Positions 1,382-63,750 are shown, counted from the first letter of the stretch. The stretch is 64,000 nt of DNA from an uncultured Bacteroidia bacterium (GCA_902800045.1 CADCCZ010000006.1:66174-130173); one strand, 5' to 3'. The notes: generated by a model not told the origin, from the letters alone. A program made the numbers and translations.

Positions 1382-4300
1382 ATGATTAGAAAATTGTCAA
1401 ATATGAAGAATTTTATTTCAACAGTAGCAATGATTCTTCTGCTTTGCACCGTAGCATTGGCAGAAAATCATCAGACTTCGTACAGCAAAGTTGCTAACGA
1501 ACATCAGATTACATTTACCTTGGGTGACTGGAATCTGGAAACATTAACATCAAACGGAACAACATTCCAGGTAATCGACGCAGGAATATCCGCAGTATCG
1601 AACAGAAAAGGCTGGGCAGAACTGCCAATGATGAGTGCAGCTATACAGCTTCCTGCCGACAAGAACGTAGGTCTCGAAGTAATTTCGTCGGACTACTACG
1701 AAATGAGGCTCGAATTCCCGGCATTGCCTTCGCGCGGAACTATCTACCGCAACCAGAATCCGTCAGAAATCCCATATTGGGTTGACCCGGCTTCGGCAGT
1801 AAACGAGTTCTATCCTAGCGAAAACGTAATCCTCGACGAACCGTTCATCTTCAGGAACGTAAGAGGTACTACCGTAAGGTTCTACCCGTTCCAGTACAAT
1901 GCTGCCACCCAGACATTAAGGGTTTACAACAGCATTACCATCGGACTTGCCGAAAACAACCAGCCGGCAATCAACCCGCTCACAAACAATACGGGCGTTG
2001 ACTCGCGCGAAGTTATTGGTATCTACAAGAGCCTGTTTCTCAACTACGAGCCGAGCAGAACCAGCGCAAACCTTACTGCAGGCGAATTCGGCGACATCCT
2101 GGTTCTCACACCGAGCACCTACGAATCGACAATGCAGCCTTACGTTCAGTGGAAACGCGAAATGGGCTACAATGTAACAGTTCAGACCGTAAGCAGCGGA
2201 GCAAACGTAGTATCTACAATATCGTCGGCATACTCGTCGAACCCCAACCTGCTTTATGTTCAGCTCGTTGGCGACTGGGCCGACATCAAATCGGCAACAC
2301 TCGGCAGCTCTACCTGCTCTTCGTGTCCTACCGACCCGAGAATGGGATGCGTTGCCGGTAACGACAACTACCCAGACCTTGCAATAGGACGTTTCTCTTG
2401 CTCCAACGCAAGCAACCTCGCAGTACAGATAAACAAGGCTATCGACTACGAAAAGAACCCCGACATGACTTCAGGCTGGCGCGAAACATTCATAGGCGTA
2501 GCTTCGGAAGAAGGTCCTGGCGACGACAGCGAATACGATTATACTCAAATCCAAAGGATTTACAACAACAAGTTGTCGCAGCTCGGAACCTACACTACGC
2601 ACAAGCAGCACTATGCTAACTCCGGTTCTGTTTCGGCATCGAGCGTTGCAACTAGCGTAAACGCAGGTGCATCTACAATCGCTTACTGCGGACACGGCGC
2701 AGAAACCTACTGGGTAACCAGCAACTATAGCACCACTAACATCAACAGCGCAACCAACGGCAGCAAGTTGCCGTTCATCGTATCGGTAGCCTGCGTAAAC
2801 GGTGCTTTCCACGAATCGGCAGACTGCTTCGCAGAAGGATGGCTTCGCAAGAGCGGCGGCGGTGCAGTTGTAACACTTATGTCAACCATCAACCAGCCAT
2901 GGCAGCCACCTATGAGAGGTCAGGATTACTTCTACGACATTCTTACTGGCGGTTTCAACTACGACAACGATGGCATTTCTGCAACTGCAGGTATCAATAC
3001 TACAGAACAGCGTACTCACTGGGGATCGATTGTTATCAACGCATTCACACTGATGCTTAAGGAATCGAGCACTACCGACGATATCGAAACCACAAAGACC
3101 TGGTCGACTTTCGGTGACGCTTCGTTGCAGCTCAGAACTAAGACTCCAGATGTTATCACCTCATCGAACAACGAAATGGTAATGGGCGTTCCATACACCA
3201 CTACAATAAAGATTGGTTCAACTCCCGTAGAAAACGCTCTTGTCTGCATATCGCAGAACGGAAGCTACTACAGAGGCTTTACAAATGCCAGCGGTCAGGT
3301 AACAATAACCAACAACTTCTCTGTTGGCGAAGCTTTGCTCGTTGTTACTGCATTCAACACAACAACCATCTACCAGACTATTCCGGTAAATTCGGCTAAC
3401 GAACCATACGTATCAATCCAGAGCTACTCGCCGCAGAACGTAAGCTTCGGAACAACCAGCGTTCTCTCGATGACTCTCGTCAACATGGGCGGTGTTGCAA
3501 CCAATGGTGCTACCAACGTTAGCCTCACAACTTCCGACCAGTACCTCACCCTCAACACTGCAAGTGCAACTTTCGGCACAATGGCAGCACAGGGCGGTAC
3601 AGCATCGAGCAGCGCATTCAACTTTACCGTTGCCGAAAATACTCCCGACGGACACGTTGCAACTATCAACGCAACAATAACCAACGGCTCGTACACATGG
3701 AACGGCACAATGAACATTACCATTGCCGGTCCTAACTGCGACGCACCAACAGGACTTAACGTTACTGCCAACGGCTCAAGCGCAACCATCACTTGGGATA
3801 CGCAGACTATCACACCAGTTACCATAAGCGACGATTTCGAAGGACATACCGCTTTCACAATCAACTCTCCGGGTACAGTCGGTTGGACTTACATCGATGG
3901 CGACGGAAGCACAACCGGCGCGATAAGCAACTACAACTCCTGGACTAACGCAAGGTCAGAAATGGCATATATAGTTTTCAATCCTTCGCAGGTAACTTCA
4001 CAGTATGGAAGCGGAAACCTATCGTCGTCGATAGCAGCACACTCGGGAAGCCAATTCCTTGCAAGCTTCTATGCTTCAACACCGCCAAACAACGACTGGA
4101 TTGTCAGCCCAGAACTTAACTTTGCAGAAAACTTCACTTTCTCATTCTACTATAGAGGCGGACACAAGACCACATACACCGAATCGTTTGAAGTTTACTA
4201 CTCTACTACAACAAACGAACAATCTGCATTCACAAATCAGCTCGGAACAGGAACAGCAACAGGCAGCACATCCGCAAGCGCATGGTCGCAAAAGACCTAC

Positions 4301-5536
4301 ACCGTACCTGCAGCTGCAAAATATGTTGCTATACGATGCACCTCAAACGACCAGTACTACTTCTGCATCGACGACATCACAATCAGCGGAACAGAAATTA
4401 GTGGCGCAGGTGCTGTAAATCTATACGACAACGGAGTTCTCGTTGCATCGAACATTACTACTGGCACTTATACGGCAAACAACCTTACTGCCGGACAGCA
4501 CTGCTTCAGCATCCGTGCCGTATGTGGCGACAACAGTGAATCGATGGCTGTACAGGAATGCGTAAACGTAACAAGTTCAGCTCCTAGCTACACCGTAACA
4601 GTTAATGCTGGCAACGGCGGTACAATAACTCCAAGCGGAACCCAGACCGTTTACCAAAACAACGACTTCACTTTTACCGTTACTCCAGACGACTGCTACG
4701 AAATAGCAAACGTTACCATAGACGGAAACAATGTAAACCTCAATGCTAACAACTCGTACACAATCAACAATATTACAGCAAACCATACTGTAAACGCTAC
4801 ATTCCACCTATTGTCGTACACAATAGCAGCAAGTGCAGGCGACAATGGTTCCATCAGCCCTGCTGGCAACACTAATGTCAATTGTGGCGACAATGCAACA
4901 TTTACCATTACTCCAGACGAAGGCTACGAAATTGCCGGCGTTACAGTCGACGGACAGAACATAGGTTCGCCAAGCACCTACACATTCTCGAATGTTGAGA
5001 CAAACCACACAATCAATGCAACATTCAGCATGATACCGGCCGAAACCTGCTACACAATTACAGGACTTGCAGTTGCTGTTGAGACTTACGGGAACGTCCT
5101 CAACTGGAATGCTGCCGAAAACGCAGTTTCGTACAACATCTACCGCAACAACGACAACACTGTTCTTGCAAACGTAAACTCGACCAGCTACATCGACATT
5201 AACGGAAACGTTGGCGACAGCTACCGCATAGTAACAGTATGCCAGCATGGTGAATCGGAATCGTCGGAAAGCGTTACTGCCACAACTTCCAGCATCGATG
5301 AAAACAGCATTTCGCTCAACATCTACCCGAACCCGACCGACGGCAAGTTCACAATCGAATGCAGCGAAATGATAACCATCGAAGTATTCGACATGGTTGG
5401 ACAACTAGTAGAAAAAATCGATGTCAATGCCAACTCTAGCAGCATCGATGCTTCGTCGTGGACAAATGGCGTTTATACCATCCGCATTGCAACATCCGAC
5501 ACCAACATCGTTGTAAAACAGCTTATCAAGCAATAA
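1382..5536 (+). CDS. Secreted multidomain peptidase C25 (gingipain-like) with T9SS C-terminal sorting domain
   Basis: A signal peptide is present (MKNFISTVAMILLLCTVALA). YCGHGAETYW and SVACVNGAF provide a His/Cys dyad about 33 aa apart, as in gingipains. Two ~70-aa repeats of the type YT(V/I)...G(G/S)I(T/S)P(S/A)G...ANHT(V/I)NATF occur. A DWIVSPELNF adhesin/MAM-like segment is present. The C-terminus LNIYPNPTDGKFTIE...VYTIRI is a T9SS CTD. Confidence 0.8.
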   Translation: MIRKLSNMKNFISTVAMILLLCTVALAENHQTSYSKVANEHQITFTLGDWNLETLTSNGTTFQVIDAGISAVSNRKGWAELPMMSAAIQLPADKNVGLEVISSDYYEMRLEFPALPSRGTIYRNQNPSEIPYWVDPASAVNEFYPSENVILDEPFIFRNVRGTTVRFYPFQYNAATQTLRVYNSITIGLAENNQPAINPLTNNTGVDSREVIGIYKSLFLNYEPSRTSANLTAGEFGDILVLTPSTYESTMQPYVQWKREMGYNVTVQTVSSGANVVSTISSAYSSNPNLLYVQLVGDWADIKSATLGSSTCSSCPTDPRMGCVAGNDNYPDLAIGRFSCSNASNLAVQINKAIDYEKNPDMTSGWRETFIGVASEEGPGDDSEYDYTQIQRIYNNKLSQLGTYTTHKQHYANSGSVSASSVATSVNAGASTIAYCGHGAETYWVTSNYSTTNINSATNGSKLPFIVSVACVNGAFHESADCFAEGWLRKSGGGAVVTLMSTINQPWQPPMRGQDYFYDILTGGFNYDNDGISATAGINTTEQRTHWGSIVINAFTLMLKESSTTDDIETTKTWSTFGDASLQLRTKTPDVITSSNNEMVMGVPYTTTIKIGSTPVENALVCISQNGSYYRGFTNASGQVTITNNFSVGEALLVVTAFNTTTIYQTIPVNSANEPYVSIQSYSPQNVSFGTTSVLSMTLVNMGGVATNGATNVSLTTSDQYLTLNTASATFGTMAAQGGTASSSAFNFTVAENTPDGHVATINATITNGSYTWNGTMNITIAGPNCDAPTGLNVTANGSSATITWDTQTITPVTISDDFEGHTAFTINSPGTVGWTYIDGDGSTTGAISNYNSWTNARSEMAYIVFNPSQVTSQYGSGNLSSSIAAHSGSQFLASFYASTPPNNDWIVSPELNFAENFTFSFYYRGGHKTTYTESFEVYYSTTTNEQSAFTNQLGTGTATGSTSASAWSQKTYTVPAAAKYVAIRCTSNDQYYFCIDDITISGTEISGAGAVNLYDNGVLVASNITTGTYTANNLTAGQHCFSIRAVCGDNSESMAVQECVNVTSSAPSYTVTVNAGNGGTITPSGTQTVYQNNDFTFTVTPDDCYEIANVTIDGNNVNLNANNSYTINNITANHTVNATFHLLSYTIAASAGDNGSISPAGNTNVNCGDNATFTITPDEGYEIAGVTVDGQNIGSPSTYTFSNVETNHTINATFSMIPAETCYTITGLAVAVETYGNVLNWNAAENAVSYNIYRNNDNTVLANVNSTSYIDINGNVGDSYRIVTVCQHGESESSESVTATTSSIDENSISLNIYPNPTDGKFTIECSEMITIEVFDMVGQLVEKIDVNANSSSIDASSWTNGVYTIRIATSDTNIVVKQLIKQ

Positions 5537-5558
5537 TAAAACTAATCCAAATCATAGA

Positions 5559-5588
5559 AGGCTCGCCAAATGGTGAGCCTTTTTTTTG
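5559..5588 (+). terminator. Rho-independent terminator of the C25 gene
   Basis: AGGCTCGCC-aaat-GGTGAGCCT (9-bp stem with one G.U pair) followed by T8. Confidence 0.7.
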
Positions 5589-5603
5589 TTTCGCACTTCA
5601 GAA

Positions 5604-5725
5604 TTTGCAACGATACTAGCATTACAAATGCTCATACTCATCTCAGGCAGATTACAAATCCGCCTGAACAATATGTCCTTCGGGATTTGTAATCCCGAAG
5701 GCTCGAATATTAGGATTTGAAATCC
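5604..5725. repeat. Intact copy of a composite palindromic repeat (left half 5604-5673, right half 5675-5725)
   Basis: Contains GATTACAAATC / GATTTGTAATC and CCTTCGGG / CCCGAAGG inverted pairs. The left half recurs at 7006-7075 (54/55 identity over the core). The right half recurs at 10927-10977 (48/51). Confidence 0.85.
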
Positions 5726-5835
5726 GTAATAAAGCACTAATAGCATAATAGCTTAATTATCAATAATTTAACATTTTGATATAATTTTACATCATATAAA
5801 TTTATATGATATAGTTTTATATGATATAATTTTAT

Positions 5836-5843
5836 TACATTTG
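5836..5843 (+). promoter_or_regulatory. -7 promoter box TACATTTG
   Basis: TAnnTTTG match 17 nt upstream of the ATG at 5860. Confidence 0.4.
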
Positions 5844-5859
5844 CAAAAATTTTAAGTGT

Positions 5860-6993
5860 ATGAACATACCATTTGCATACGGGAAGATTGTGGAAAATAA
5901 CGATTTCACAGATAGGACAGAAGAAACATCTCTCTTGAGAAATAATTTTATGTCGCTTACCAATACGGCAATTATTTCACCTCGCCGTTGGGGAAAATCA
6001 TCTTTGGTTGCAAAAGCCATAAAGTCTGTCAAGGAGGAACAGGATGACATTTTGTTCGTGAAGATGAATATTTTCAAGACCGAAAATCCGCAAGAGTTTT
6101 ATGCAACTTTTGCCAAGCGAATAATGGAAGGCATCTCATCGTCGGCAGAGTCGTTGCTAACTAACGCCAAGGATTTTATTGCTCGCTTGCTTCCCAAACT
6201 GTCAATTTCTGACCCTATTGGACAGTATGAAATTGCACTTGGGGTGGACACAAAAAACTCTCCTATTGAAGAAGACATTCTGGATTTGCCGCAGCAGATT
6301 GCCCAGCGTAAGAAGAAAAAGGTTGTTGTATGCATCGACGAATTCCAACAAATAGGTGAATATTCCGATGCATTGAAATTCCAGAAGACACTACGCAGCC
6401 ATTGGCAGACACATTCTGATGTTGCCTATATACTATATGGAAGCAAAAAGCACATGATGATGAACATTTTCGGTGAATACAACAGTCCTTTCTACCGATT
6501 TGGCGATATGATGTTTTTGCAGAAAATATCCAACGATGAATGGCAGAAATATCTTGTCGGCAGATTTAAAGACACGGGAAAATCAATTACACAAGCACTT
6601 GCCAAGTACCTTGCCGAGCAAGTAGAAAATCATCCATACTATGTGCAGCAACTTGCCCAATATGCTTGGTTGAGAACAACGCGCACTTGCTCTACTGCCA
6701 TTGTTGACAATGCCTTGCAAGCAATGCTCGATTCGCTTAACTTACAGTTTGTCAACATAATGGACTCATTGACCGAGAAGCAACGGAATTTTCTTTGTGC
6801 AGTGTCCAACGATGTTAAAAATTTCTCGGCCTCGGATACCTTGCAACGCTACAAACTTGGCACCAGCGGTAACATCCGCATCATAAAGGAAGCCTTGAAG
6901 AAACGCGACCTGATTGATGAAACGGGCAAGGACATACAAATCCAAGACCCGATTTTTAAATTGTGGATTATTAGGGAATACGCTAAAATGTAA
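5860..6993 (+). CDS. Orphan AAA+ ATPase (archaeal-type ATPase / DUF234-like family)
   Basis: Walker A SPRRWGKSSLV and Walker B VVCIDEFQQI. A paralog of the same architecture lies at 27855-28979. Confidence 0.7.
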   Translation: MNIPFAYGKIVENNDFTDRTEETSLLRNNFMSLTNTAIISPRRWGKSSLVAKAIKSVKEEQDDILFVKMNIFKTENPQEFYATFAKRIMEGISSSAESLLTNAKDFIARLLPKLSISDPIGQYEIALGVDTKNSPIEEDILDLPQQIAQRKKKKVVVCIDEFQQIGEYSDALKFQKTLRSHWQTHSDVAYILYGSKKHMMMNIFGEYNSPFYRFGDMMFLQKISNDEWQKYLVGRFKDTGKSITQALAKYLAEQVENHPYYVQQLAQYAWLRTTRTCSTAIVDNALQAMLDSLNLQFVNIMDSLTEKQRNFLCAVSNDVKNFSASDTLQRYKLGTSGNIRIIKEALKKRDLIDETGKDIQIQDPIFKLWIIREYAKM

Positions 6994-7005
6994 TTCATAT
7001 CGGCA

Positions 7006-7075
7006 TTTACAACGATAAGAGCATTACAAATGCTCATACTCAACTCAGGCAGATTACAAATCCGCCTGAACAATA
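7006..7075. repeat. Left half only of the palindromic repeat
   Basis: gcattacaaatgctcatactcaactcaggcagattacaaatccgcctgaacaata matches 5619-5673 with one mismatch. The similarity ends abruptly at 7075. Confidence 0.85.
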
Positions 7076-7107
7076 GTCAATAACAATATTTGGGTTTTGC
7101 ATACAAT

Positions 7108-8013
7108 TCACAAAATCTTTTTGCTGTATTTCTTTACCAGATCTTTCGCATCCTGTAAGAGCCGTTTACGCAACCAGTTCGGACTTATAACCTCAACTTC
7201 CTTTCCCATAGCTCGCACTGTATTGATGAAATCATCGGTTGGGACCAAATGCAATTCAAATAGGTTGTTGGCAATCTCTTTCTGGGAACGGTGCAGAGGC
7301 AGCGAACGCAAATACTTTGCGCGTGTGTCTGAGGTCTTTAATTGTATATGTTCCGCTTTGCCATCCGTCACTATCATACCAAAATAGCGAGAAAAATAAT
7401 CGTCTGCAGAAAAATCTGTGGGCAGTTTGAACAATTTGTCGCTAATTTTCACATCCTTCATGCGGTCGAGTGCGTAAAGACGCAGAGAATCGTGGAAGCC
7501 GGTGTGAGCCAACACATACCAACGCCGACCAAAGTAGCGCAATGCGTAAGGTTCAATCTCAAACTCGCGTGCGGTTCGCATTTCGTAACTTTGGTATGTG
7601 ATTGACAGCCGACTGTTTTCGCGCATTGCAGTGGTGATTTCTGGAAGAAAAATGTTGCTGCCAGCCGGCGTATCTTCAAGAAGTATGCGGTCTGCCAAGT
7701 CCAGATTTTCGCTAACCATCTGGTTTACAGCAAATGCAGAAAGCAAGAACTGAGTGTTTTTATTGCATCCCGAGATGTCGTTTTCGATATGGTATTTTTT
7801 CTCTTTTCGGTCATATACGATTTGAATGTCGAACAAACTTAATATGTTATCTTTCATTCGGATGAATGTACGACGAGGAATTGTCCCCTTTCCATCATCA
7901 TTGAAGACGGAGTTTGCCCAGCGGCTGTCGATTTCACTTTTGGACAGGCCTTTGCTGTACGACAATAGTTCTATTAGCCAGAGGTAACGAGCGAAAAGAG
8001 TGGTAGGGGTCAT
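7108..8013 (-). CDS. WYL-domain transcriptional regulator (wHTH-WYL-C-terminal extension)
   Basis: N-terminal wHTH-like segment (LWLIELLSYSKGLSKSEI). WYL core YALRYFGRRWYVLAHTG...LRLYALDRM. The ATG lies 2 nt after the stop of the upstream nuclease gene. Confidence 0.75.
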   Translation of the reverse strand: MTPTTLFARYLWLIELLSYSKGLSKSEIDSRWANSVFNDDGKGTIPRRTFIRMKDNILSLFDIQIVYDRKEKKYHIENDISGCNKNTQFLLSAFAVNQMVSENLDLADRILLEDTPAGSNIFLPEITTAMRENSRLSITYQSYEMRTAREFEIEPYALRYFGRRWYVLAHTGFHDSLRLYALDRMKDVKISDKLFKLPTDFSADDYFSRYFGMIVTDGKAEHIQLKTSDTRAKYLRSLPLHRSQKEIANNLFELHLVPTDDFINTVRAMGKEVEVISPNWLRKRLLQDAKDLVKKYSKKIL

Positions 8014-8015
8014 TG

Positions 8016-9824
8016 TTATTTCCAGTAGCGAGTTTCGAGATAATTAAGCAGTTCTTTGTAGTCATCGTTTCCTTTCAAGGGGGAAAGAAGTTCTTGGGGA
8101 TCGATGATACGGAATTTGGATTTATCTTTCAAATTTGGAATAAAACAATTTTCCACTGCTTCACGCAATTCTGTATTCCCATTTGGAATCACATTGAGAT
8201 GGAAGAAATTTTTTGCATATCCTTTTTGTACCAATTGTTCCGCTAACAAAGTCTGGCGCATAAGTTCATAACTTGGTTCTTGGAAATAAATGGAATGAGC
8301 TACTCCGTCTTTAGGCGTTTTAAGCCTTGCTGAACTTATTATTTTTGCTCCATAACGATAAAGGCGCGTATCATTTGTTTTGTCTTCATTTTCGTAATTT
8401 TCCGTGTATTTCCATTCAATCGGAATCAGCCATTTTTCTTCACCTTTTCGTGCCACAATCATAGCATCAATTGATGTGCAAAGAACGCCTCTTCTTGCGC
8501 CCTTATCATTTTCACCCAACATTTCATCATTTTTATAAGCAAACTCAAAAGCAATGTAGCCACCATCGTTGTCAAGAGTCGATGGAAGCACTTCATCAAA
8601 ATCCATATTAGTTGCTTTGTTTATAACTGCCAATACTGCATCTTTATCTTCTCGCAAAGCAAAAAGATGATTTAGACAATGAATTTGTGAGGAAAGTAGA
8701 TGACCAGTAGGTTCAATTCCATTTTGCCCCCACCATGCGATTTTAAAATTTTTAAAATATTTTTTCGCTAAACTTCTGATTCCGGATTCCAAATTGAAAT
8801 CATTATAATTAGTATCTAAAATATAGTCTAATTTATAGACTTTAGATTTTTCATTGTTTCCTATTTTTAGAATTCCACCAAACTTTGCCGATTCAAATAT
8901 TGGATTTGATGTCAATTTGAATTGTTTTTCTGTTTCCAAACATTTAAATTCGTGAATTGGTTTATGAAAATATCTAACATATTTGTTACTTAAATAAATA
9001 TTCAGAATATCAGACTTCCGACCTTCTATTAGAGGATGCAAAGCGTCAGCTAGCATATACCCGTTTATGTATTTACATTTCTTCGTTTTATAAAAATCAT
9101 ATAATTTCCCAAAAGAACGATAAGAAGAAGATTCGGGAATTTTAATTTCCCCTTTCATCACATCGACCATTACATTAACATAGAACATCAATTCTGATAT
9201 TATTCCTACTTTTTTGTTTGTCTTTTGTTTCAATTCATAAATATTCAATGTGTTATATTTTATACTCCATATATCTAAAAAACTACTTGGTGTTACAGAT
9301 TTTCCTTTTGATATTTCTTCATTGAACAAATGAACGGGTAATTGTTGGTTTATCACATCACAAAAAGCCTTATTTTCAGCAAGAAAAGCCCTCTCAAGTT
9401 GAGCTTCTTTATGCGAAGCTTTTTTTTCTGCATCATCATTTGGCACATTAATTACCAAATGTAATTTGTCGAATTTTATTATGTCATCTTTGAAACCATC
9501 AGAACATGCCCAAATATACATTTCTTCAAATTTTTTTAGACGGTATAAAAATCTGTTATAGTGTTCTTTTTCGTTTTTAGATGGAGAGAAACTTTTCCCC
9601 GATACTATGACTTTTTCGATATACTCAGGCAACCATGCTTTCAAACAAATGGCCCAACCTTCAAAAGCTGCTGCGTCTGTTTGCATATTTGAGCAAATGC
9701 CATTCTCTGTCATCGTAATAACAAGTTCTTTTCTTTCTGGGTTTATATTAAAATCAATATCTTTAGGAAAATTTACGCGTCTGATTTTTGAACGTAATAG
9801 GTTTAAAATTTCTTGTTTGTTCAT
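8016..9824 (-). CDS. 602-aa protein with two PD-(D/E)xK nuclease-like modules (N-terminal NucS/DUF91-like; C-terminal restriction-endonuclease-like)
   Basis: Module 1: EAQLERAF ... FLDIWSI-x9-NIYELKQK (E, D, ExK). Module 2: HLLSSQIHCLNHLF ... TSIDAMIV-x12-LIPIEWKYTE (D, ExK). The gene is strongly AT-rich. No match to a named enzyme could be made by eye. Confidence 0.5.
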   Translation of the reverse strand: MNKQEILNLLRSKIRRVNFPKDIDFNINPERKELVITMTENGICSNMQTDAAAFEGWAICLKAWLPEYIEKVIVSGKSFSPSKNEKEHYNRFLYRLKKFEEMYIWACSDGFKDDIIKFDKLHLVINVPNDDAEKKASHKEAQLERAFLAENKAFCDVINQQLPVHLFNEEISKGKSVTPSSFLDIWSIKYNTLNIYELKQKTNKKVGIISELMFYVNVMVDVMKGEIKIPESSSYRSFGKLYDFYKTKKCKYINGYMLADALHPLIEGRKSDILNIYLSNKYVRYFHKPIHEFKCLETEKQFKLTSNPIFESAKFGGILKIGNNEKSKVYKLDYILDTNYNDFNLESGIRSLAKKYFKNFKIAWWGQNGIEPTGHLLSSQIHCLNHLFALREDKDAVLAVINKATNMDFDEVLPSTLDNDGGYIAFEFAYKNDEMLGENDKGARRGVLCTSIDAMIVARKGEEKWLIPIEWKYTENYENEDKTNDTRLYRYGAKIISSARLKTPKDGVAHSIYFQEPSYELMRQTLLAEQLVQKGYAKNFFHLNVIPNGNTELREAVENCFIPNLKDKSKFRIIDPQELLSPLKGNDDYKELLNYLETRYWK

Positions 9825-9854
9825 CTCTTTATATCTTTACGAATTAATACACTA

Positions 9855-9862
9855 CAAATATA
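9855..9862 (-). promoter_or_regulatory. -7 promoter box (TATATTTG on minus strand)
   Basis: Plus-strand caaatata lies 31 nt upstream of the 9824 ATG, suggesting the nuclease-WYL pair can be transcribed on its own. Confidence 0.35.
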
Positions 9863-9892
9863 CACACAATGTTGATATATACAATATAATTT

Positions 9893-10843
9893 TTACCTAT
9901 TTATAACCTCAATTGCCCTTTCTACATCCTTTTCCGTAATTCCTATAATTGGATCGATGCGGATGAAATGGTCTTGCAGTTCGGGTAACACTTCTTTCAA
10001 GTCATCGAAGATGACGAATCGGCGCGAATCGCTGTTGGCATCAAGCACTTCGTCGAAATACCACTTTATTTCGTTGCCTCGGCACAAACTTAGCATATCC
10101 ACTTGGGTCAAGTCGGTGTCGCGCAGTTTGTCGTCCAGCAGGTGCAAAGGCGTAATATCTACAATTCTACCAGGTAAATCGCGGTCGTACCACATCCTCT
10201 GCAAGACATTCAGCCCCATATAGCGCCACGACGAACTGACAACAATACGCGCACCAGTAACATCGATTATTTTCCGCAAATTCGACACAGCCTCGGGGTC
10301 GAACAACTGACCATATTTGTCATCGCTGGGCAGACCCTTGCTTTTCAATTCGCAATAATATTTCTCGGTGTTCAGAACGCCATCGAAATCGAGAAAAATA
10401 ATCGGACAATCCTTCTCATTATCTTGTGCTGCAATCTCTTGCTCTTTTTCAAAGCAGACATCAGCTGTCGTTCTGAATACTTTCTGTTCGTTGTGCTTGC
10501 CTGTTGTCTGCCAATCCAGTAGCAACGGGCGTTCCTTTTCGACAAGGTAATCCGAACACTCCAGCAAGGTGTCCTTGTCGGTGTCGAAAAAGATGTCTTC
10601 CGTAGCCTTTGGCAACCGTCTGAAAAGTTCGCGACTTCCAATGAAGAGTTCCTTGTTCTCCAGAAAATTATTCAAAGTTCCCATAATGGTGAACTTGTTT
10701 TCCTCAATGTGGTGTAATACGGCTTCCTTTATAAATTCATCAAGCACATCTTTAAGTCTGCTTTCGTCATAATTTGCGCCGCTAGCCTTCAAATATGCCT
10801 CCAGATGTGGCATTTCATAGTAAAGTTCAATCGTTCCTTTCAT
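9893..10843 (-). CDS. Two-domain protein: unknown N-terminal domain + HAD-superfamily phosphatase domain of the HAD_SAK type
   Basis: C-terminal half: IIFLDFDGVLNTEKYY (DxDGVL motif I), IVVSSSWR (motif II-like), RGNEIKWY, FVIFDDL (motif IV). Confidence 0.55.
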   Translation of the reverse strand: MKGTIELYYEMPHLEAYLKASGANYDESRLKDVLDEFIKEAVLHHIEENKFTIMGTLNNFLENKELFIGSRELFRRLPKATEDIFFDTDKDTLLECSDYLVEKERPLLLDWQTTGKHNEQKVFRTTADVCFEKEQEIAAQDNEKDCPIIFLDFDGVLNTEKYYCELKSKGLPSDDKYGQLFDPEAVSNLRKIIDVTGARIVVSSSWRYMGLNVLQRMWYDRDLPGRIVDITPLHLLDDKLRDTDLTQVDMLSLCRGNEIKWYFDEVLDANSDSRRFVIFDDLKEVLPELQDHFIRIDPIIGITEKDVERAIEVINR

Positions 10844-10866
10844 TTTTATAATCTTTTATTTTGCTG

Positions 10867-10874
10867 CAAAATTA
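10867..10874 (-). promoter_or_regulatory. -7 promoter box (TAATTTTG on minus strand)
   Basis: Plus-strand caaaatta lies 24 nt upstream of the 10843 ATG. Confidence 0.4.
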
Positions 10875-10926
10875 TGTGCCGAATGTGCCACTATGCGGCG
10901 CAGTGCAAAAAAAATTACATTTTCTC

Positions 10927-10977
10927 GTCCTTCGGGATTTGTACTCCCGAAGGCTCGAATATAAGGATTTGTAATCC
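10927..10977. repeat. Right half only of the palindromic repeat
   Basis: gtccttcgggatttgtactcccgaaggctcgaatataaggatttgtaatcc matches 5675-5725 at 48/51. Confidence 0.8.
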
Positions 10978-11084
10978 CCAAAAAACATCGTTGAAAAAAA
11001 ACACAAACAAATCTGAATTGCGTACCCAAAATATTTATAATTTTACGCAAAATTTTTTAACGCAAACACTAATATAGAAATACA

Positions 11085-13937
11085 ATGATTAGAGAAGATT
11101 TCTACACCCGCCACGTGGGTCCGAGGGAAAGCGAATACGCTGAAATGCTCAAGAAAATCGGAGCAAAATCACTCGACAAATTCATTGATCAGGTCATCCC
11201 GACCAAAATCAGACTGAAAGAAAACCTTAAGCTCGACGAACCGCTCACCGAAGACGAGTTCCTTGTAAAACTGAAGGCTATGGCCGCAAAAAACAAGATT
11301 TACCGCTCGCTTATCGGTATGGGTTACTACGGCACTGCTGTTCCATCGGTAATCCTGCGCAATGTCTTCGAAAATCCAAGCTGGTACACTTCATACACTC
11401 CGTATCAGGCTGAAATTTCGCAGGGCCGTCTCGAAGCTCTCCTTAACTTCCAGACCGTAATCACCGAACTCACAGGAATGGAACTTGCAAACTGCTCGCT
11501 CCTCGATGAAGGTACCGCAGCAGCCGAAGCAGCAAGAATGATGTTCGAATGCCGTTCGCGTCAGGCAGCAAAGGAAGGCCGCAACGTAGTTTTCGTTGAC
11601 AAGGACATCTTCCCGCAGACTCTCGACGTTATCCTTATGCGTACCGAACCACTAGGAATCGAGGTCGAAGTTGGCGACTACAAGAAGGTAAAACTCTCGA
11701 AGAAATATATAGGTGCAATCCTCCAGTACCCGAGCGCAAGCGGCGAAATCCGCGACTATGCAAAGTTCACCGAAACTGCACACGAAAACGAAATGCTCGT
11801 AACTGCAGTTGTTGACACTATGGCTCTCGTACTGCTCAAGTCGCCGGCATCGTGGGGTGCTGACATAGTAGTTGGTAACACACAGCGTTTCGGACTTCCG
11901 ATGGGATTCGGCGGACCGCACGCAGCTTTCATGGCTACTTCCGACAAGTATAAACGCAAAATGCCGGGACGTATAATCGGTGTCAGCGTTGATAAGTTCG
12001 GACGCAAGGCTCTCCGTCTCGCATTGCAGACCCGCGAACAGCACATCAAGCGCGAAGATGCTACATCGAACATCTGCACCGCTCAGGCTCTGCTCGCAAT
12101 GATGGCTGGTTTCTACGTTGTATATCACGGACCAGAAGGAATGAGAAGAATCGCTAACAACATCTACTCATCAGCAAAATTCCTCGCTGCCGAAATCAAG
12201 AAGCTCGGCTACAAGATTGAACATACAAACATATTCGATACAGTTATCGTTAACGGCGCAGACAAGAAGGCTATCGAAAAGCTCGCTTTGCAGCGCAAGA
12301 TTAACTTCCACTACATCGATGAAAAGACCGTTGGCTTCAGCACCGACGAACTTATTTCGGTTGCCGATGTAAACAACATCCTCGAAATCTTTGCTCTCGC
12401 TGCTGGCAAGAAGGCAAAGAAGGTCGTAGATGTTCCGATGGTAAATATGGATGCTAAGTTCGCAAGAACCGACAGCATTTTCAACCAGAAGGTATTCAAC
12501 AGCTACCACAGCGAAACCGAAATGATGCGTTACATCAAGAAACTCGAACGTCGTGACATTTCTCTCACCCAGTCGATGATTTCACTCGGTTCGTGCACAA
12601 TGAAGCTCAACCCTGCAACTTCGATGTTGCCGCTCAGCTGGCCGGAATTTGCAAACATTCACCCGTTTGTTCCGAAGAACCAGGCTCTCGGTTACTACGA
12701 ACTCATCGAAGACATTTCGAAGGACCTTTCGACAATTACAGGCTTTGCAGCAACAACCTTGCAGCCAAATTCTGGAGCAACTGGCGAACATACAGGCCTT
12801 ATGATTATCCGTGCATACCACCACTCAAGAAAGGAAGCTCACAGGAATGTCTGCATTATCCCGACATCGGCACACGGAACCAACCCTGCAAGTATGGCAA
12901 TGGCAGGTTTCAAACTTGTTCTTGTCAACTGCGACGAACACGGTAACATCGATGTTAAGGATTTGAAGGAAAAGGCAGTTGCCAACAAGGACAACCTTGC
13001 TGCAATGATGATTACCTATCCATCAACCCACGGCGTATTCGAGAACAAGATTCTCGACATCGTAAAGATTATCCACGACAACGGCGGTCTTGTATATATG
13101 GACGGCGCAAACATGAACGCACAGGTAGCACTCACCAACCCGGGAACTATCGGAGCAGATGTTTGCCACCTCAATCTCCACAAGACCTTTGCTAGCCCTC
13201 ACGGTGGTGGCGGTCCTGGCATCGGAACCGTTTCGGTATGCAAGAAGCTCGTTGACTTCCTCCCGACCCACAGCGTAATTAAGACCGGTGGCAAGAAGGG
13301 CATCCGCGCTATCACATCGGCTCCGTTCGGCAGTGCAATGATTCTCCCGATTACCTACGCATATATCAAGATGATGGGTGAACGCGGTTTGAAGGAAGCT
13401 ACAAAGATTGCTATCCTCAACGCAAACTACATTGCTAGCGAACTGAAGGATACTTTCAATGTTCTCTACACTGGCGAAACTGGCCGTTGCGCACACGAAA
13501 TGATTCTTGACGTTCAGAAGTTCCGCGCTGAATATGGCGTAGAAGCAGCCGACATCGCACACCGTCTGATGGACTTCGGTTTCCATGCTCCTACATTGTC
13601 GTTCCCAGTACACGAAACCCTTATGGTTGAACCTACCGAGAGCGAAAGCAAGCAGGAACTCGACCGCTTCATCGAGACAATGAAGGTTATCAAGGCTGAA
13701 TGCGAGGACATCAAGGCTGGTAAGTACACCCGCGAGGACAATCCTCTTGTAAATGCACCTCACACCCAGTTCGAATGTACTGCAAGCGAGTGGAACCACT
13801 GCTATCCGCGTGAAAAGGCTGCCTTCCCGCTGCCATGGATCAAGGAAAACAAGTTCTGGCCTTACGTTGCAAAGATTGACAACGCATACGGCGACCGCAA
13901 CCTAGACTGCAAGTGCAACCAGCTCGAAGAAGAATAA
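11085..13937 (+). CDS. gcvP: Glycine dehydrogenase (decarboxylating), single-chain P protein
   Basis: 950 aa. Start MIREDFYTRHVGP. Family motifs SWYTSYTPYQAEISQGRLE and LNLHKTFASPHGGGGPG (PLP-lysine region). Confidence 0.95.
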   Translation: MIREDFYTRHVGPRESEYAEMLKKIGAKSLDKFIDQVIPTKIRLKENLKLDEPLTEDEFLVKLKAMAAKNKIYRSLIGMGYYGTAVPSVILRNVFENPSWYTSYTPYQAEISQGRLEALLNFQTVITELTGMELANCSLLDEGTAAAEAARMMFECRSRQAAKEGRNVVFVDKDIFPQTLDVILMRTEPLGIEVEVGDYKKVKLSKKYIGAILQYPSASGEIRDYAKFTETAHENEMLVTAVVDTMALVLLKSPASWGADIVVGNTQRFGLPMGFGGPHAAFMATSDKYKRKMPGRIIGVSVDKFGRKALRLALQTREQHIKREDATSNICTAQALLAMMAGFYVVYHGPEGMRRIANNIYSSAKFLAAEIKKLGYKIEHTNIFDTVIVNGADKKAIEKLALQRKINFHYIDEKTVGFSTDELISVADVNNILEIFALAAGKKAKKVVDVPMVNMDAKFARTDSIFNQKVFNSYHSETEMMRYIKKLERRDISLTQSMISLGSCTMKLNPATSMLPLSWPEFANIHPFVPKNQALGYYELIEDISKDLSTITGFAATTLQPNSGATGEHTGLMIIRAYHHSRKEAHRNVCIIPTSAHGTNPASMAMAGFKLVLVNCDEHGNIDVKDLKEKAVANKDNLAAMMITYPSTHGVFENKILDIVKIIHDNGGLVYMDGANMNAQVALTNPGTIGADVCHLNLHKTFASPHGGGGPGIGTVSVCKKLVDFLPTHSVIKTGGKKGIRAITSAPFGSAMILPITYAYIKMMGERGLKEATKIAILNANYIASELKDTFNVLYTGETGRCAHEMILDVQKFRAEYGVEAADIAHRLMDFGFHAPTLSFPVHETLMVEPTESESKQELDRFIETMKVIKAECEDIKAGKYTREDNPLVNAPHTQFECTASEWNHCYPREKAAFPLPWIKENKFWPYVAKIDNAYGDRNLDCKCNQLEEE

Positions 13938-27854: not shown

Positions 27855-28979
27855 TCAGTAAGTTTCTTCCAACCATCGCGACAAGAACACGTTATATACA
27901 GAATAGCTCCTTTCATTTAGACCTACAGTTTCAAGAAGCAATTCCTTCTCGGTAAGCGATTCCAGATTTCGTCGCGCATTAGTAGCACTACCCAACTGAT
28001 ATTTTGCAAGAAATTGTGCCGATGTTACACTTTGAACAGACTGCTCCTTGGCTATGGCAATAAGCAACCGCCACTGTTGCTCTGTTATCAAATTGCGTAT
28101 CTGCAAAAAGTTGGACACTTCCGTTTCTAAAATCTCACGGCTTGCTTTACGTGCAACAGCAACAGAAACCACTCTAGGCTTCATTTTGAATATTTCGTTA
28201 CACAACGACTGGGTGTAGAAAGTATGACGACGTGTCCATTCCAAAATATAGGCCATTGCCTCATCATCAACCGCCACAGGCAAAAACTTTTCCCGGATAA
28301 ATGCTGCATATTTATCGGCATCAATCTTATCAAGCGTCAGTTGCCGAGTACTCGAATAAAACGGGCGAGCAGCATCGGCAAATATTTGTGTCATTATAGA
28401 CTTCTTACTTCCACAATACACAAAACTTATATTGTGCATCTGCTGCGTATATGTCCTAAGCAGTGCTTCAACATTTTTCTCTGGATATGTAGTTATTTGC
28501 TGGAATTCATCGATAGCTACCACGACATGCTGCTTCTGTGAGTTTAGAAAAGCGAACAAACCCTTCAATGTATATTCTTTTTCCGATGGTGCCGAAAAAT
28601 TAAATTCTACCTGAGGCATTCCGCTCACAGGATCGTATGTAATTACTGGGCGATAGCCCTTTAGCAATGCCATAAACTTGTTACCGATACTAGTTTTTTC
28701 AGGAAACTCCACGAGTATCGCTTCTGCCAATGTCTTTATGAAATCTTTCAACGAAAGTGTCGCAAAAATATCCACATACAAGGTAGAGAAAGGCAATTTT
28801 TCTTCTGCTATCTTATAAAAAGTGTGAAGAATCAATCCAGTTTTTCCGAACTTACGTGGAGAAATCAACGTAGTATCGAGACCATTCTGTATATTCGACA
28901 ATAAAGCCTCTGTTTCTTTCTCTCTGTCACAGAAGAACATAGGCAACAAATACCCCTTAGCTAAAAATGGATTCTGCAT
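27855..28979 (-). CDS. Orphan AAA+ ATPase (same family as 5860-6993)
   Basis: FCDREKE, ISPRKFGKTGLI (Walker A), VVAIDEFQQI (Walker B). The start was set at the ATG at 28979 because the track start at 28997 is a TTG inside the promoter box. Confidence 0.7.
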   Translation of the reverse strand: MQNPFLAKGYLLPMFFCDREKETEALLSNIQNGLDTTLISPRKFGKTGLILHTFYKIAEEKLPFSTLYVDIFATLSLKDFIKTLAEAILVEFPEKTSIGNKFMALLKGYRPVITYDPVSGMPQVEFNFSAPSEKEYTLKGLFAFLNSQKQHVVVAIDEFQQITTYPEKNVEALLRTYTQQMHNISFVYCGSKKSIMTQIFADAARPFYSSTRQLTLDKIDADKYAAFIREKFLPVAVDDEAMAYILEWTRRHTFYTQSLCNEIFKMKPRVVSVAVARKASREILETEVSNFLQIRNLITEQQWRLLIAIAKEQSVQSVTSAQFLAKYQLGSATNARRNLESLTEKELLLETVGLNERSYSVYNVFLSRWLEETY

Positions 28980-28994
28980 AATTTTAATTTTTTG

Positions 28995-29002
28995 CAAATA
29001 TA
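28995..29002 (-). promoter_or_regulatory. -7 promoter box (TATATTTG on minus strand)
   Basis: Plus-strand caaatata lies 16 nt upstream of the ATG at 28979. Confidence 0.4.
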
Positions 29003-29021
29003 ATAATTTTCACAAAATCCA

Positions 29022-29063
29022 ACCTATTTTAGGTTACCTATTTTAGGTTACCTATTTTAGGCA
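29022..29063. promoter_or_regulatory. Three tandem 14-bp units, each containing the palindrome ACCTAtttTAGGT; candidate operator
   Basis: acctattttaggtt acctattttaggtt acctattttaggca, directly upstream of the ATPase promoter box. Confidence 0.5.
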
Positions 29064-29159
29064 TGATTTTTTTGAGAGAGAGCAAAACTTCCGCCAGAAT
29101 ACAAGATATTCGGAAACAGGAAGAGAGATTAATATCAAAAGCAATGCAATCCAATTCAT
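29052..29159 (-). pseudogene. 5' remnant of a third copy of the large polytopic (GT-C-like) membrane protein
   Basis: Translates to MNWIALLLILISLPVSEYLV..., homologous to MNLLALVAIIVSLVFLYVVG (31111) and MDWIALVAIIVSIVVLYFVG (33111). The upstream DNA aattcatagtcta..aat.acaaaatttcacc is shared with 31105-31136. The ORF stops after 35 codons inside the palindrome repeats. Confidence 0.6.
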
Positions 29160-62699: not shown

Positions 62700-62822
62700 G
62701 TCGTTGCTCGTTTATTAGTCGTTGCTCGCAACGGCTCTACGGGGTTTGGATATTGTCAGTCGTTGCTCGCAACGGCTCTACGGGGTTTGGATATTGTCAG
62801 TCGTTGCTCGCAACGACTCTAC
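62700..62822. repeat. Tandem 41-bp repeat (2 full units + partial units), each carrying the GTCGTTGCtcGCAACGrC hairpin + TCTAC
   Basis: gtcgttgctcgcaacggctctacggggtttggatattgtca at 62718-62758 and 62759-62799. The partial unit at 62800-62822 is identical to 22610-22632. Confidence 0.9.
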
Positions 62823-63750
62823 AACATTCCAATGACCGCCCTTGTCGGGGCCAACACGAACAATAAATCCTTTTTCTCGTAATGTATTTAAATGAACACG
62901 TATAGTATCCCTATGCTTCCCTGTCATATCAGACAACTTATCATAGGTAATCTTTGGATTATCCTTTAACAACGAAACTATCAAAACATCTAAATCATCC
63001 AATTTTTCAGGCGGATTTTCAGGCGGATTTTCAGGCGGATTTTCAGGCGGATTTTCAGGCGGATTTTCAGGCGGATTTTCTATGATTGTTCTCTTAACAT
63101 CCAGCCTCCTGAACACCACCAAAGCACAGTCCATCTTTTCATCACGGAAACTTACGAGCTTGGAATCTTCTTCATTCCATTGCTGCATCTTGTCAAATCC
63201 AAAACCAGCATTCTCGCACAACTTTGCGCAACGGAACAATTTGGCAATAACAGGATTGCGAGGAATTGAAACATCAGTACGCAGCAGTTCGTCAATTGGA
63301 CGAGGGAAACCGCCTGGATTTTCAAACTCAATCCGATCTGTAAACACCCTTATCCGCGACTTCATCGGACTGAAATAATCAGCATGCATAAGCATATTTA
63401 CCAAGGCCTCACGGAGAGCATCCAACTTAGGCGACTCTTCAATGCCAACACCCATCTGGTTTATTCCCACAAAAACATTATCCGCATACAATCTAAGTCT
63501 CTGTATTATAGCCAGATAATATTCCCAAATATTTTCCATTTCCGAAATTCGGAATGTATATCGGTTCGTAGCATTGGCATACGATGTTCCTGGAATCTCA
63601 AAATAATCAATTCTAAAATCTGCAAAATGGTGTCCTATTGACAATTCGTTACCAAACATCAGTAAGCCTCCGTATGTAAGATTGCCATTCTTGGCAATCT
63701 GCAATTTCTCGCAAAATTCAGTATCGTCCAGATTATTATGGACATTTAAC
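62778..63750 (-). pseudogene. 5'-truncated paralog of the AlbA_2/HATPase_c_4 regulator (AlbA_2 domain missing)
   Basis: There is no ATG; the frame is open from the stop at about 63750. NNLDDTEFCEKLQIAKNGNLTYGGLLMFG aligns with residues about 195-225 of the 546-aa paralog. LREALVNMLMHADY is retained. A (PPEN)x6 linker is encoded by a 12-bp tandem repeat (63008-63079). The 3' end runs into the 41-bp repeat. Confidence 0.6.

Follow-up and report, generated by a model that had tools for sequence, protein, structure and literature searches.

Short extragenic imperfect palindromes lying between the terminator of one gene and the promoter of the next are described from the repetitive extragenic palindromic (REP) sequences, bacterial interspersed mosaic elements (BIMEs) and REPIN-RAYT systems of Enterobacteria and Pseudomonas, in which hairpins of different types occur in doublets and form modular, deletion-prone mosaics. 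REPs are also the insertion targets of the insertion sequences (IS) IS1397 and ISKpn1. In Bacteroidetes, CGTC repeats without a dedicated transposase were reported by Di Nocera et al. 2013 (PMC3733652), the defined families having 8-9-bp stems that start with AT, 4-5-nt loops and a CCA tail. In Neisseria, arrays of intergenic mosaic elements (NIMEs, made of dRS3 and RS) were proposed to promote recombination with foreign DNA, and their arrangement with minimal mobile elements was said in 2007 to be unseen outside that genus (Bentley et al. 2007, PMC1797815). Here we describe repeats of a comparable kind in a 64,000-nt stretch, referred to as the window, from an uncultured Bacteroidia bacterium (GCA_902800045.1 CADCCZ010000006.1:66174-130173). 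They lie in the spacer between a C25 protease gene and gcvP, around an ATPase gene and a three-gene cassette, and an initial annotation had read them as one 122-bp palindromic element, present once intact and once split around the cassette. The repeats are instead two different double-hairpin modules, L (~75 nt) and R (~51 nt), and we lean towards reading the C25-gcvP spacer as a cassette hotspot in which a REP/BIME- or NIME-like repeat mosaic acts as the substrate of recombination.

The host contig is a rumen metagenome scaffold, and its nearest genomes are uncultured rumen Bacteroidales metagenome-assembled genomes (MAGs). A repeat search of the window paired 5598-5673 with 7000-7075 (L, 76 nt, 92% identity) and 5675-5733 with 10927-10985 (R, 59 nt, 90%). 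Both pairs were recovered by blastn-short (L, 94.4% over 71 nt, E 4e-27; R, 94.1% over 51 nt, E 1e-17), which found no third copy of either module in the 64-kb window, giving totals of two L and two R. The 11-mer core GATTWSWAATC occurs five times in the window, each time within an L or R copy, against 0.29 occurrences expected from shuffles. L1 and R1 are separated by a single T (5674), the ATPase gene (5860-6993) lies between this L1.R1 pair and L2, and the 3,851-bp interval between L2 and R2 (7076-10926) contains exactly three minus-strand genes. Thus the initial annotation was right that the pair is contiguous once and separated once, that the separated copy encloses exactly the WYL/nuclease/HAD cassette, and that direct copies of the left half flank the ATPase gene. 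All modules are intergenic, and the locus is laid out as follows.

1382-5536, + strand: C25/type IX secretion system (T9SS) protease gene, the left flank.
5556-5590, + strand: intrinsic terminator of the C25 gene, a 12-bp stem followed by a T run.
5598-5673, + strand: L1, L-type double-hairpin module, the C25-linked ("chromosomal") copy, from repeat search, blastn-short and folding.
5674-5733, + strand: R1, R-type double-hairpin module that travels with the ATPase unit, from repeat search and folding.
5760-5859, + strand: private operator/promoter region (Op) of the ATPase gene, with inverted and direct ATATGATATAATTTTA-type repeats and three overlapping promoter-like sites.
5860-6993, + strand: P-loop ATPase of the ATPase_2/AAA_14 family, 377 aa.
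7000-7075, + strand: L2, second L module, starting 7 nt past the ATPase stop codon and ending CTGAACAATA.
7076-7081, no strand: junction filler GTCAAT, 6 nt, from L2 to the cassette homology block.
7082-10914, - strand: three-gene cassette block, its limits being those of homology with UBA1184 (window 7082 and 10914).
7108-8013, - strand: WYL+WCX regulator.
8016-9824, - strand: REase-ARP/PDDEXK_13 nuclease of the PD-(D/E)xK type.
9893-10843, - strand: HAD_SAK_2 phosphatase.
10915-10926, no strand: junction filler TTACATTTTCTC, 12 nt.
10927-10985, + strand: R2, the gcvP-linked R module, with hairpin A at 10929-10953 and hairpin B at 10964-10976.
10986-13937, + strand: gcvP promoter region and gene (gene 11085-13937), the conserved right flank of the candidate hotspot.

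The modules were defined by a junction alignment of all fetched loci, and their hairpins by folding. Both start with a common head (H) of 15-17 nt, (C/T)GTCCTTCGGGATTTG, continuing as GTCCTTCGGGATTTG(C/T)A; L opens with GTCCTTCGG(G/A)ATTTG(C/T)A, the same 15-17 nt as the start of R. After the head, L continues as CAACGATA..., forms the small hairpins GCATTACAAATGC and GGCAGATTACAAATCCGCC, and ends in CTGAACAATA, while R runs through the 3' arm of an 11-bp hairpin A and a spacer into hairpin B (GGATTTGTAATCC). R1 is made of a TGTC tag, hairpin A (5677-5701, 11-bp stem, TGT loop), the spacer CTCGAATATTA and hairpin B (GGATTTGAAATCC). The 122-bp unit L.T.R is therefore a head-to-tail pair of two modules in direct orientation, its T being part of the TGTC tag of R, and not one palindromic element. 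The common head is not apparent from the window alone because the heads of L1 and L2 are degenerate. Behind its degenerate head, L1 has the same hairpins GCATTACAAATGC and GGCAGATTACAAATCCGCC and the same end, CTGAACAATA, and it carries a diagnostic variant, GATACTAGC, common to the C25-linked L of four other loci (L019, L048, L010 and L063), in all of which the C25 terminator sequence also precedes L. The head of the ATPase-linked L2, TTCATATYGGCATTT, is found again in L008 and L030, and the hairpin-B variant of R1 with its tail GGATTTGAAATCCGTAATAAAGCACTAATAG also precedes the ATPase operator region in L049, where there is no upstream L.

The L.R strand folds into four local triloop hairpins with no stem between L and R (dG -26.2, z -5.8). 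Complementarity between L and R amounts to 71% over 41 nt and is confined to the hairpin cores, since every hairpin of the family has the same ATT-NNN-AAT top. The mutually complementary arms pointed out in the initial annotation are thus present, but as a trivial consequence of these generic tops, and long-range L:R pairing that would bound the cassette by inverted arms is rejected. In a biased sample of 603 kb of fetched DNA, counted for description, ATT-NNN-AAT with at least 4 flanking Watson-Crick pairs occurred 75 times, against ~3 expected, on 42 different stems, which shows a hairpin top conserved over co-varying, compensating stems. The module ends are equally well defined. R starts sharply at CCTTCGGG, directly after (C/T/A)GT, in every copy of the metagenome scan, and L ends in GAACAATA, followed by GT, in 4 independent solo contexts. 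These solo copies, which read GAACAATA-GT, are the one common to the window and L030, a second copy in L030 and two copies in L037; L.R reads GAACAATA-T-GT.

In these respects the modules resemble REP/BIME repeats: they are short (20-40 nt) extragenic imperfect palindromes, four of them in L.R, placed between a terminator and the next promoter, arranged in doublets and in mosaics of different hairpin types, prone to deletion and targeted by an IS. They differ from REPs and REPINs in that the 5' GTAG tag is absent, the tag here being CGT or TGT plus C, and in that the modules stand head-to-tail in direct orientation and not as inverted REPIN pairs. Moreover, L is low-copy and locus-specific in close relatives, and the modules belong to Bacteroidota, whereas REPs and REPINs have been described from Proteobacteria. 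R is multi-copy in rumen metagenomes. The modules resemble the CGTC/TGTC-tagged REPs, which are defined by that motif standing unpaired at one end: in nearly all copies of R a CGT or TGT followed by C lies before hairpin A, and here base pairing of the stem begins with this last C. Unlike in the defined families, the stem has 11 bp (CCTTCGGGATT) and starts with CC, the loop has 3 nt and there is no CCA tail.

The L census comes from one scan of genome contigs with an L 20-mer, which returned 22 loci, four of them from close relatives, and the R census from one scan of metagenome contigs with hairpin A of R; further loci were taken from protein-identity look-ups and from Logan contigs of public runs. 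Below, loci are cited by L with three digits and Logan runs by X. Among genomes and metagenomes whose gcvP has 95-97% nucleotide identity (>99% amino acid identity), the locus shows at least 12 arrangements, in which the variable spot is flanked by the GT2/C25 genes and by gcvP. The inserted units are the ATPase, WYL/REase-ARP/HAD_SAK_2, a RelB-PIN pair, small secreted or membrane proteins and an IS4 element, each bounded by L, R or L.R. Arrays contain from 1 to at least 5 modules, and the head also starts a third module.

Two loci are empty sites, as the initial annotation had anticipated for relatives. RUG13567 (L019) reads GT2-C25-terminator-L.T.R-gcvP promoter and L048, a rumen metagenome contig, reads C25 terminator-L.T.R-gcvP promoter, both with an intact L.T.R and no cargo. 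UBA1184 (L010 and L006, one contig) has C25, L.R, 50 nt, the cassette, 8 nt and a second L.R before gcvP, and no ATPase. In ruminal_MAG_341 (L008), another T9SS gene is followed by R only, a further module termed M, the operator, the ATPase, L, a 1.07-kb cargo (a 198-aa secreted protein), R and gcvP. RGIG8023 (L009), which has no C25 gene, reads GT2, L.R, ATPase, L with a truncated R and two M modules, RelB and PIN_3, the 3' part of R, and gcvP. Metagenome contigs add R.L.R-Op-ATPase-L-cassette-L-0.94-kb cargo-R-gcvP (L030), cassette-L-1.8-kb cargo-L.(11 nt).R-gcvP (L037) and L.R-50 nt-cassette (L055, L035 and L047). In L063, C25-L.R-M-cassette is joined directly to a shortened gcvP upstream region, the right side having neither L nor R, and in L050 and L049 R replaces the gene after the ATPase operator region. 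Logan run X3 gave L.R(M)-ATPase-L, L-H'-cassette, cassette-CTTGTAT-L and L-1.76 kb-R-gcvP, and run X4, from another rumen sample, gave one 7.8-kb contig, ~95% identical, that spans L.R-ATPase-L-cassette-gcvP upstream, with R2 (10929-10976) replaced by TCCCA. R adjoins the gcvP promoter in L019, L048, L006, L008, L030 and L037, and its 3' part does so in L009. The occurrence of several unrelated cargos between an L and an R in other strains likewise agrees with the initial annotation. As separate observations, L055 holds at 1417-2268 a copy of gcvP promoter-like sequence, after the ATPase gene and before a 225-aa open reading frame (ORF) of no assigned family, and at 7586-9266 a 559-aa ORF beside the array with no Pfam or NCBIfam match, whose C-terminus resembles, by visual inspection only, that of a tyrosine recombinase and which was not used in the argument.

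Differences between arrangements always end at a module boundary or a hairpin loop, and several of them are direct examples of recombination within the repeats. The allelic contigs L041 (3522-3574) on the one hand and L067 (1586-1608) and L039 on the other differ in a single R, where 30 nt are cleanly deleted from one GGATTTGTA core to the other; this shows slippage between hairpin cores, and the same core-to-core deletion of 30 nt is found in L009. The loop of hairpin B can harbour module M (CCTTTAGCTCGCTGCAACAGCAGCA) as a nested insert, and UBA1184 carries a 9-bp loop duplication. In L049 (10695-12090), hairpin A of an R copy is interrupted by an IS4-family (DDE_Tnp_1) transposase gene of 437 aa. 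In L009 and L055 the stop codon of the ATPase gene has become fused with the tail of a hairpin B, ...AAAATGTAATCCGCAC, and degenerate module remnants of 9-23 nt lie between L and R in L037, L035/L055 and L049.

The two modules differ in how widely they occur. Hairpin A of R was found in 45 rumen metagenome contigs. Of 61 distinct contexts of R, 47 lack an L within 70 nt, and the depth of R-bin contigs was 2-5 times that of flanking bins in four rumen runs; in rumen Bacteroidales R is thus a dispersed repeat. Close relatives have one or two exact matches to the L 20-mer per genome, all at this locus, and the 20-mer and had no matches in viral contigs; 8 of 23 L copies lack R. What had been treated as two halves of one unit is therefore largely independent and unlinked in the case of R, and partly so in the case of L. 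The body of L belongs to a wider doublet family, hairpin-N12-15-GGCGGATTACAAATCCGCC-TGAAC, found in Prevotella and other rumen MAGs, sometimes in tandem arrays, and among the loci of the L scan R was never found after the distant L-type doublets of other genera. No RAYT gene was seen in the fetched loci examined. R also marks a second variable spot (L040, L052, L056, L061, L065 and L068), where a conserved gene end, …TTCTCAAAATATCAGTAA, is followed by R. In L065 the next gene follows R directly; in L052 and L068 R is followed by a ~0.85-kb lipoprotein gene, a duplicated piece of the gene end and the next gene, with a second R after the piece in L068; and L040 and L056 have a truncated R, ~0.77 kb and a second R. 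As an aside on the distant family, its unit GGCGGATTACAAATCCGCCTGAAC forms tandem arrays in Prevotella MAGs, with periods of ~43 nt in L003 (700-1200) and ~220 nt in L007 (150-700). These arrays lie between queF-like and glmM-like genes, judged by eye from ORF translations, and upstream of a SusC-like receptor gene, and no Y1/HUH gene was found beside the arrays of L003 and L007.

R-Op-ATPase-L is one present/absent block with linked variants. The unit is 93-94% identical in nucleotide sequence in L008 and L009, the protein is 98-99% identical in L008, L009, L030 and L055, and the operator region is conserved with the gene at 97-100% in L008, L009, L030, L051 and L055; the ATPase is absent from L019, L048, UBA1184 and L063. 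The 3' end of the ATPase gene shows a 16-nt similarity to the right junction read as its reverse complement; an inversion scar was considered and rejected, the similarity being at chance level with several equal matches. Elsewhere in the window, a paralogous ATPase_2 gene (27855-28979, minus strand), 27% identical to the gene at 5860-6993, has no L or R modules. It has its own triple direct repeat (CCTAAAATAGGTAA, three times, at ~29030-29070 within the region 27855-29075) and the same TATTAYATTTGCAAAAA promoter box as the ATPase gene, and both ATPase_2 genes look like self-regulated ATPase cassettes.

The flanks of the three-gene cassette vary. Its left junction, L2-GTCAAT-AACAATATT (junction sequence GAACAATAGTCAATAACAATATT), is common to the window, L030 and X4, and the left end of the cassette, AACAATATTTG, recurs in UBA1184 and in cargo X of L008. 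The right junction of the window, ...GCAAAAAAAA-TTACATTTTCTC-GT-R, was not found at the other loci recovered; the filler TTACATTTTCTC also stands before the junction in the X4 contig, there without R, and is absent from the fetched loci. On the right side, UBA1184, L030, L037 and X3 read ...GCAAAAAAA-CTTG(C/T)(A/G)T-L, with CTTGC(A/G)T in the first three and CTTGTAT in X3, and L063 and L055 read ...CTCGT with no module. L.R flanks the cassette on each side in UBA1184 and L does so in L030; in L063 there is L.R-M to its left and no module to its right. Among REase-ARP homologues (519 matches at E <= 1e-10), three loci were inspected and showed no H, L, R or paired ATT-NNN-AAT hairpin; in L076 HAD_SAK_2-REase-WYL lies between unrelated genes, and the other looked-up loci pair the nuclease with different neighbours. 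REase-ARP cassettes at other loci thus lack the modules, which are not the cassette's own termini and belong to the recipient lineage and locus. The earlier tie between the cassette and a split element does not hold. The cassette is also mosaic internally. The nuclease (window 8016-9824; compared in L030, L034, L037, L047, L055 and L063) varies between strains in its identity to the window protein, from 43% to 95%, with the C-terminal half alone aligning in L030 and L047, while WYL stays at 83-94% in L030, L037, L047, L055 and L063 and drops to 67% in L034. In the latter, the nuclease is 95% identical and WYL and HAD are 67% identical. This mosaic nuclease beside a steadier WYL points to recombination inside the cassette. 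Two looked-up loci may be noted in addition: L076 (6526-9744), in another Bacteroidales genome, has the same trio with a short HAD_SAK_2 of 154 aa, beside a UvrA-like gene and without hairpin modules, and L075 (171-3260) has an 81%-identical nuclease followed directly by an ATPase_2 gene.

The explanation to which we incline, a cassette hotspot with a repeat mosaic as recombination substrate, starts from what is demonstrated above: sharply ended modules, empty sites, a large number of arrangements and deletions from loop to loop. It is further supported by the differing module flanks of one cassette, by the frequency of solo R and L copies, by the second R-marked spot, by the lack of an integrase, transposase or Y1 gene in the window from 1 to 56 kb and by a GC content that is lower in the cargo than in the flanks. 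The basal state of the locus would be the head-to-tail pair L.R, and gene units would be gained, lost and swapped by recombination ending at module ends or hairpin loops. The repeats would provide portable homology and microhomology for exchange with the DNA of other strains, circles carrying an L.R junction could insert in the Campbell manner, and slippage between repeat cores may produce deletions. The layout in the window consists of a chromosomal L, the block R-Op-ATPase-L, the cassette and a chromosomal R. Since its left junction is common to L030 and X4 and its right junction is not, the two have separate histories and at least two events are required, which speaks against the one precise insertion put forward earlier; recombination between such elements, the other route named in the initial annotation, fits the arrangement data well. 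From the arrangements compared we infer that the cassette first came to have an L on one side and the gcvP-linked R on the other, having been inserted at that point or, alternatively, through loss of a left R+terminator piece and a right L, both of which are kept in other strains. R-Op-ATPase-L would then have been added by recombination within L; if an ATPase circle with an L.R junction underwent a Campbell-type exchange, within L, with a chromosome of the form L-cassette-R, the product would have exactly the window order.

Several points weigh against this explanation. In 4-5 independent cases the cargo lies within 0-2 nt of the same L end and R start in a spacer of ~130 nt, a precision that exceeds the prediction of plain homologous recombination and could reflect mobile modules or an enzyme with site specificity. 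AATAGT is the reading of all solo L copies and AATATGT that of L.R copies, a difference of 1 nt for which this explanation offers no account. The order of events is conjecture, because no single-event route was found from a UBA1184-type L.R-cassette-L.R to the layout of the window. Furthermore, loci were fetched with L- and R-derived patterns, so that the counts are biased toward these modules.

By analogy, the overall arrangement is closest in kind to NIME arrays combined with minimal mobile elements. As in NIMEs, short conserved inverted-repeat punctuation separates variable modules in syntenic arrays that differ in number by strain, and as in minimal mobile elements, alternative small gene sets, including restriction or defence genes, stand between conserved genes without mobility genes. 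The sequences are unrelated and the phylum is another one, which makes the locus an analogue and not a member. The punctuation here consists of a 15-nt head with ATT-NNN-AAT hairpins, in contrast to the 20-bp dRS3, ATTCCCN8GGGAAT. Natural transformation is not known for this organism, and no phage integrase is known to target the modules here.

A single precise insertion would treat L.T.R as one REP-like target, into whose half-junction a hairpin-targeting HUH/Y1 or IS-like enzyme acting in trans placed the 3.85-kb cassette. In its favour, empty sites with an intact L.R exist, and ...GAACAATA and GTCCTTCGGG... also enclose other cargos (those termed X in L008 and L030, and the 1.76-kb insert in X3). 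The cargo has a GT at either end, which would be expected after a crossover or duplication of 2 bp, and the IS4 within hairpin A of an R in L049 gives a parallel to the known use of REPs by IS1397 and ISKpn1. This L049 insertion likewise resembles those REP-targeting IS; the window cargo differs in having neither transposase nor terminal inverted repeats. We regard such an insertion as unlikely nonetheless, for L and R are separate modules that commonly stand alone, and the same cassette stands between two complete L.R pairs in UBA1184 and has different flanks in other strains. The left junction is shared with L030 and X4 and the right one is not, the T of L.T.R is missing, and the junctions carry fillers of 6 and 12 nt. 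Among the genes called in the window from 1 to 56 kb there is no integrase, transposase, Y1 or any recombinase family, and hence no candidate enzyme in the cassette or around it.

A capture platform resembling an integron, with L.R as an attC-like folded site at which circles of R-cargo-L are re-inserted by a dedicated recombinase encoded elsewhere in the genome, seems to us improbable. In a speculative form of it, to which we would give as little credit, the ATT-NNN-AAT modules may be recognition sites of a recombinase specific for hairpins or single strands, such as an HUH enzyme of RAYT-like type with its gene elsewhere, which would cut between (C/T)GT and CC... and between ...GAACAATA and GT, the C25-[L.R]n-gcvP arrays serving as the platform; if true, rumen Bacteroidales would possess a system that moves cassettes with their own promoters, carrying defence, toxin-antitoxin and surface-protein genes. 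Units of the form R-cargo-L do lie between L.R sites (the ATPase in the window, L009, L030 and L051; the cassette in UBA1184) and could circularise to L.R. As with attC, single small gene units are bounded by imperfect palindromes of ~60-140 nt that fold. The sharpness of the module ends agrees with such a platform, as does a hairpin top that is conserved while its stems co-vary, a pattern suggestive of structure-specific recognition. So does a cargo that includes a toxin-antitoxin pair, small proteins and defence-like genes, as chromosomal integrons have a similar cassette content. On the other hand, neither an integrase beside the array nor attI or Pc was found near it (window 1-56 kb for the recombinase), and the GTTRRRY-type core is not present at the junctions. 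The units have their own promoters or operators and both orientations, the ATPase with its operator/promoter being on the plus strand and the cassette with its own upstream region on the minus strand. The sites are near-identical here, in contrast to integrons, and because L.R copies are 90-98% alike, ordinary homologous recombination over ~120 nt suffices. In addition, forms such as L-X-R cannot come from exchange between two L.R sites. By every defining feature tested, the locus is not an integron.

That L and R are the terminal repeats of a mobile cargo element, with L.T.R as its empty form akin to a miniature inverted-repeat transposable element (MITE), is very improbable: L-cargo-R does occur with several cargos beside a 122-bp form without cargo, yet relatives have this form at the orthologous position and not elsewhere, the exact L 20-mer is confined to this locus in close relatives, R is mostly solo, REase-ARP cassettes elsewhere lack L and R, no transposase was found, and judged by their common head L and R are direct and not inverted. 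For the same reasons the locus does not conform to an IS200/IS605 element or a MITE (PATE), there being no cargo transposase and L.R being confined to the orthologous site in close relatives. Mis-assembly of the metagenome across short repeats, suggested by the breaks of the Logan unitigs of the source sample at L and R, is hardly credible as the origin of the order L.R-ATPase-L-cassette-R, because the independent 7.8-kb contig from a different sample (X4) spans the same order, L030 independently has ATPase-L-cassette with the same junction, and depth is uniform (~25-26) across all pieces in X1.

With the repeat-mosaic explanation taken as the likelier account, the locus offers a base-resolution view of how uncultured rumen Bacteroidales may keep a chromosomal spot open for small units of defence-like and surface-protein genes, through more than a dozen natural variants, two of them empty sites. 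The repeats would represent a Bacteroidota counterpart of REP/BIME and of the neisserial NIME/minimal-mobile-element arrangement, and they account for the breaks in metagenome assemblies at this locus. Sharp module ends and a conserved hairpin top give a concrete substrate for seeking an acting enzyme; if homologous recombination acts alone, this is a well-documented but ordinary case of repeat-mediated genome plasticity. Such plasticity is already known; what stands out here is an unusually complete comparative series, together with the intriguing sharpness of the module ends.

Some further properties of the window were recorded. GC content is 0.40 in the ATPase gene, 0.28-0.45 in the cassette and 0.47-0.51 in the flanks. 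PADLOC recognises only the WYL protein and, weakly, the ATPase (PDC-S01, E 4e-5). An Rfam search of 5300-11300 at E <= 1 returned chance-level matches below gathering scores only, none of them on the modules proper. A terminator scan found no T-tailed terminator reading of L and R on the plus strand, and hairpin A read on the minus strand gave a weak terminator score. In rumen metatranscriptome contigs, a few low-depth pieces cover the ATPase gene, and one spans the C25 terminator through L.R. Far to the right, at 63006-63078, six tandem copies of the 12-nt unit TTCAGGCGGATT encode an (ENPP)x6 linker in a 308-aa minus-strand ORF (62778-63704), and a 13-nt match of this repeat region to L (AATCCGCCTGAAC) looks coincidental.

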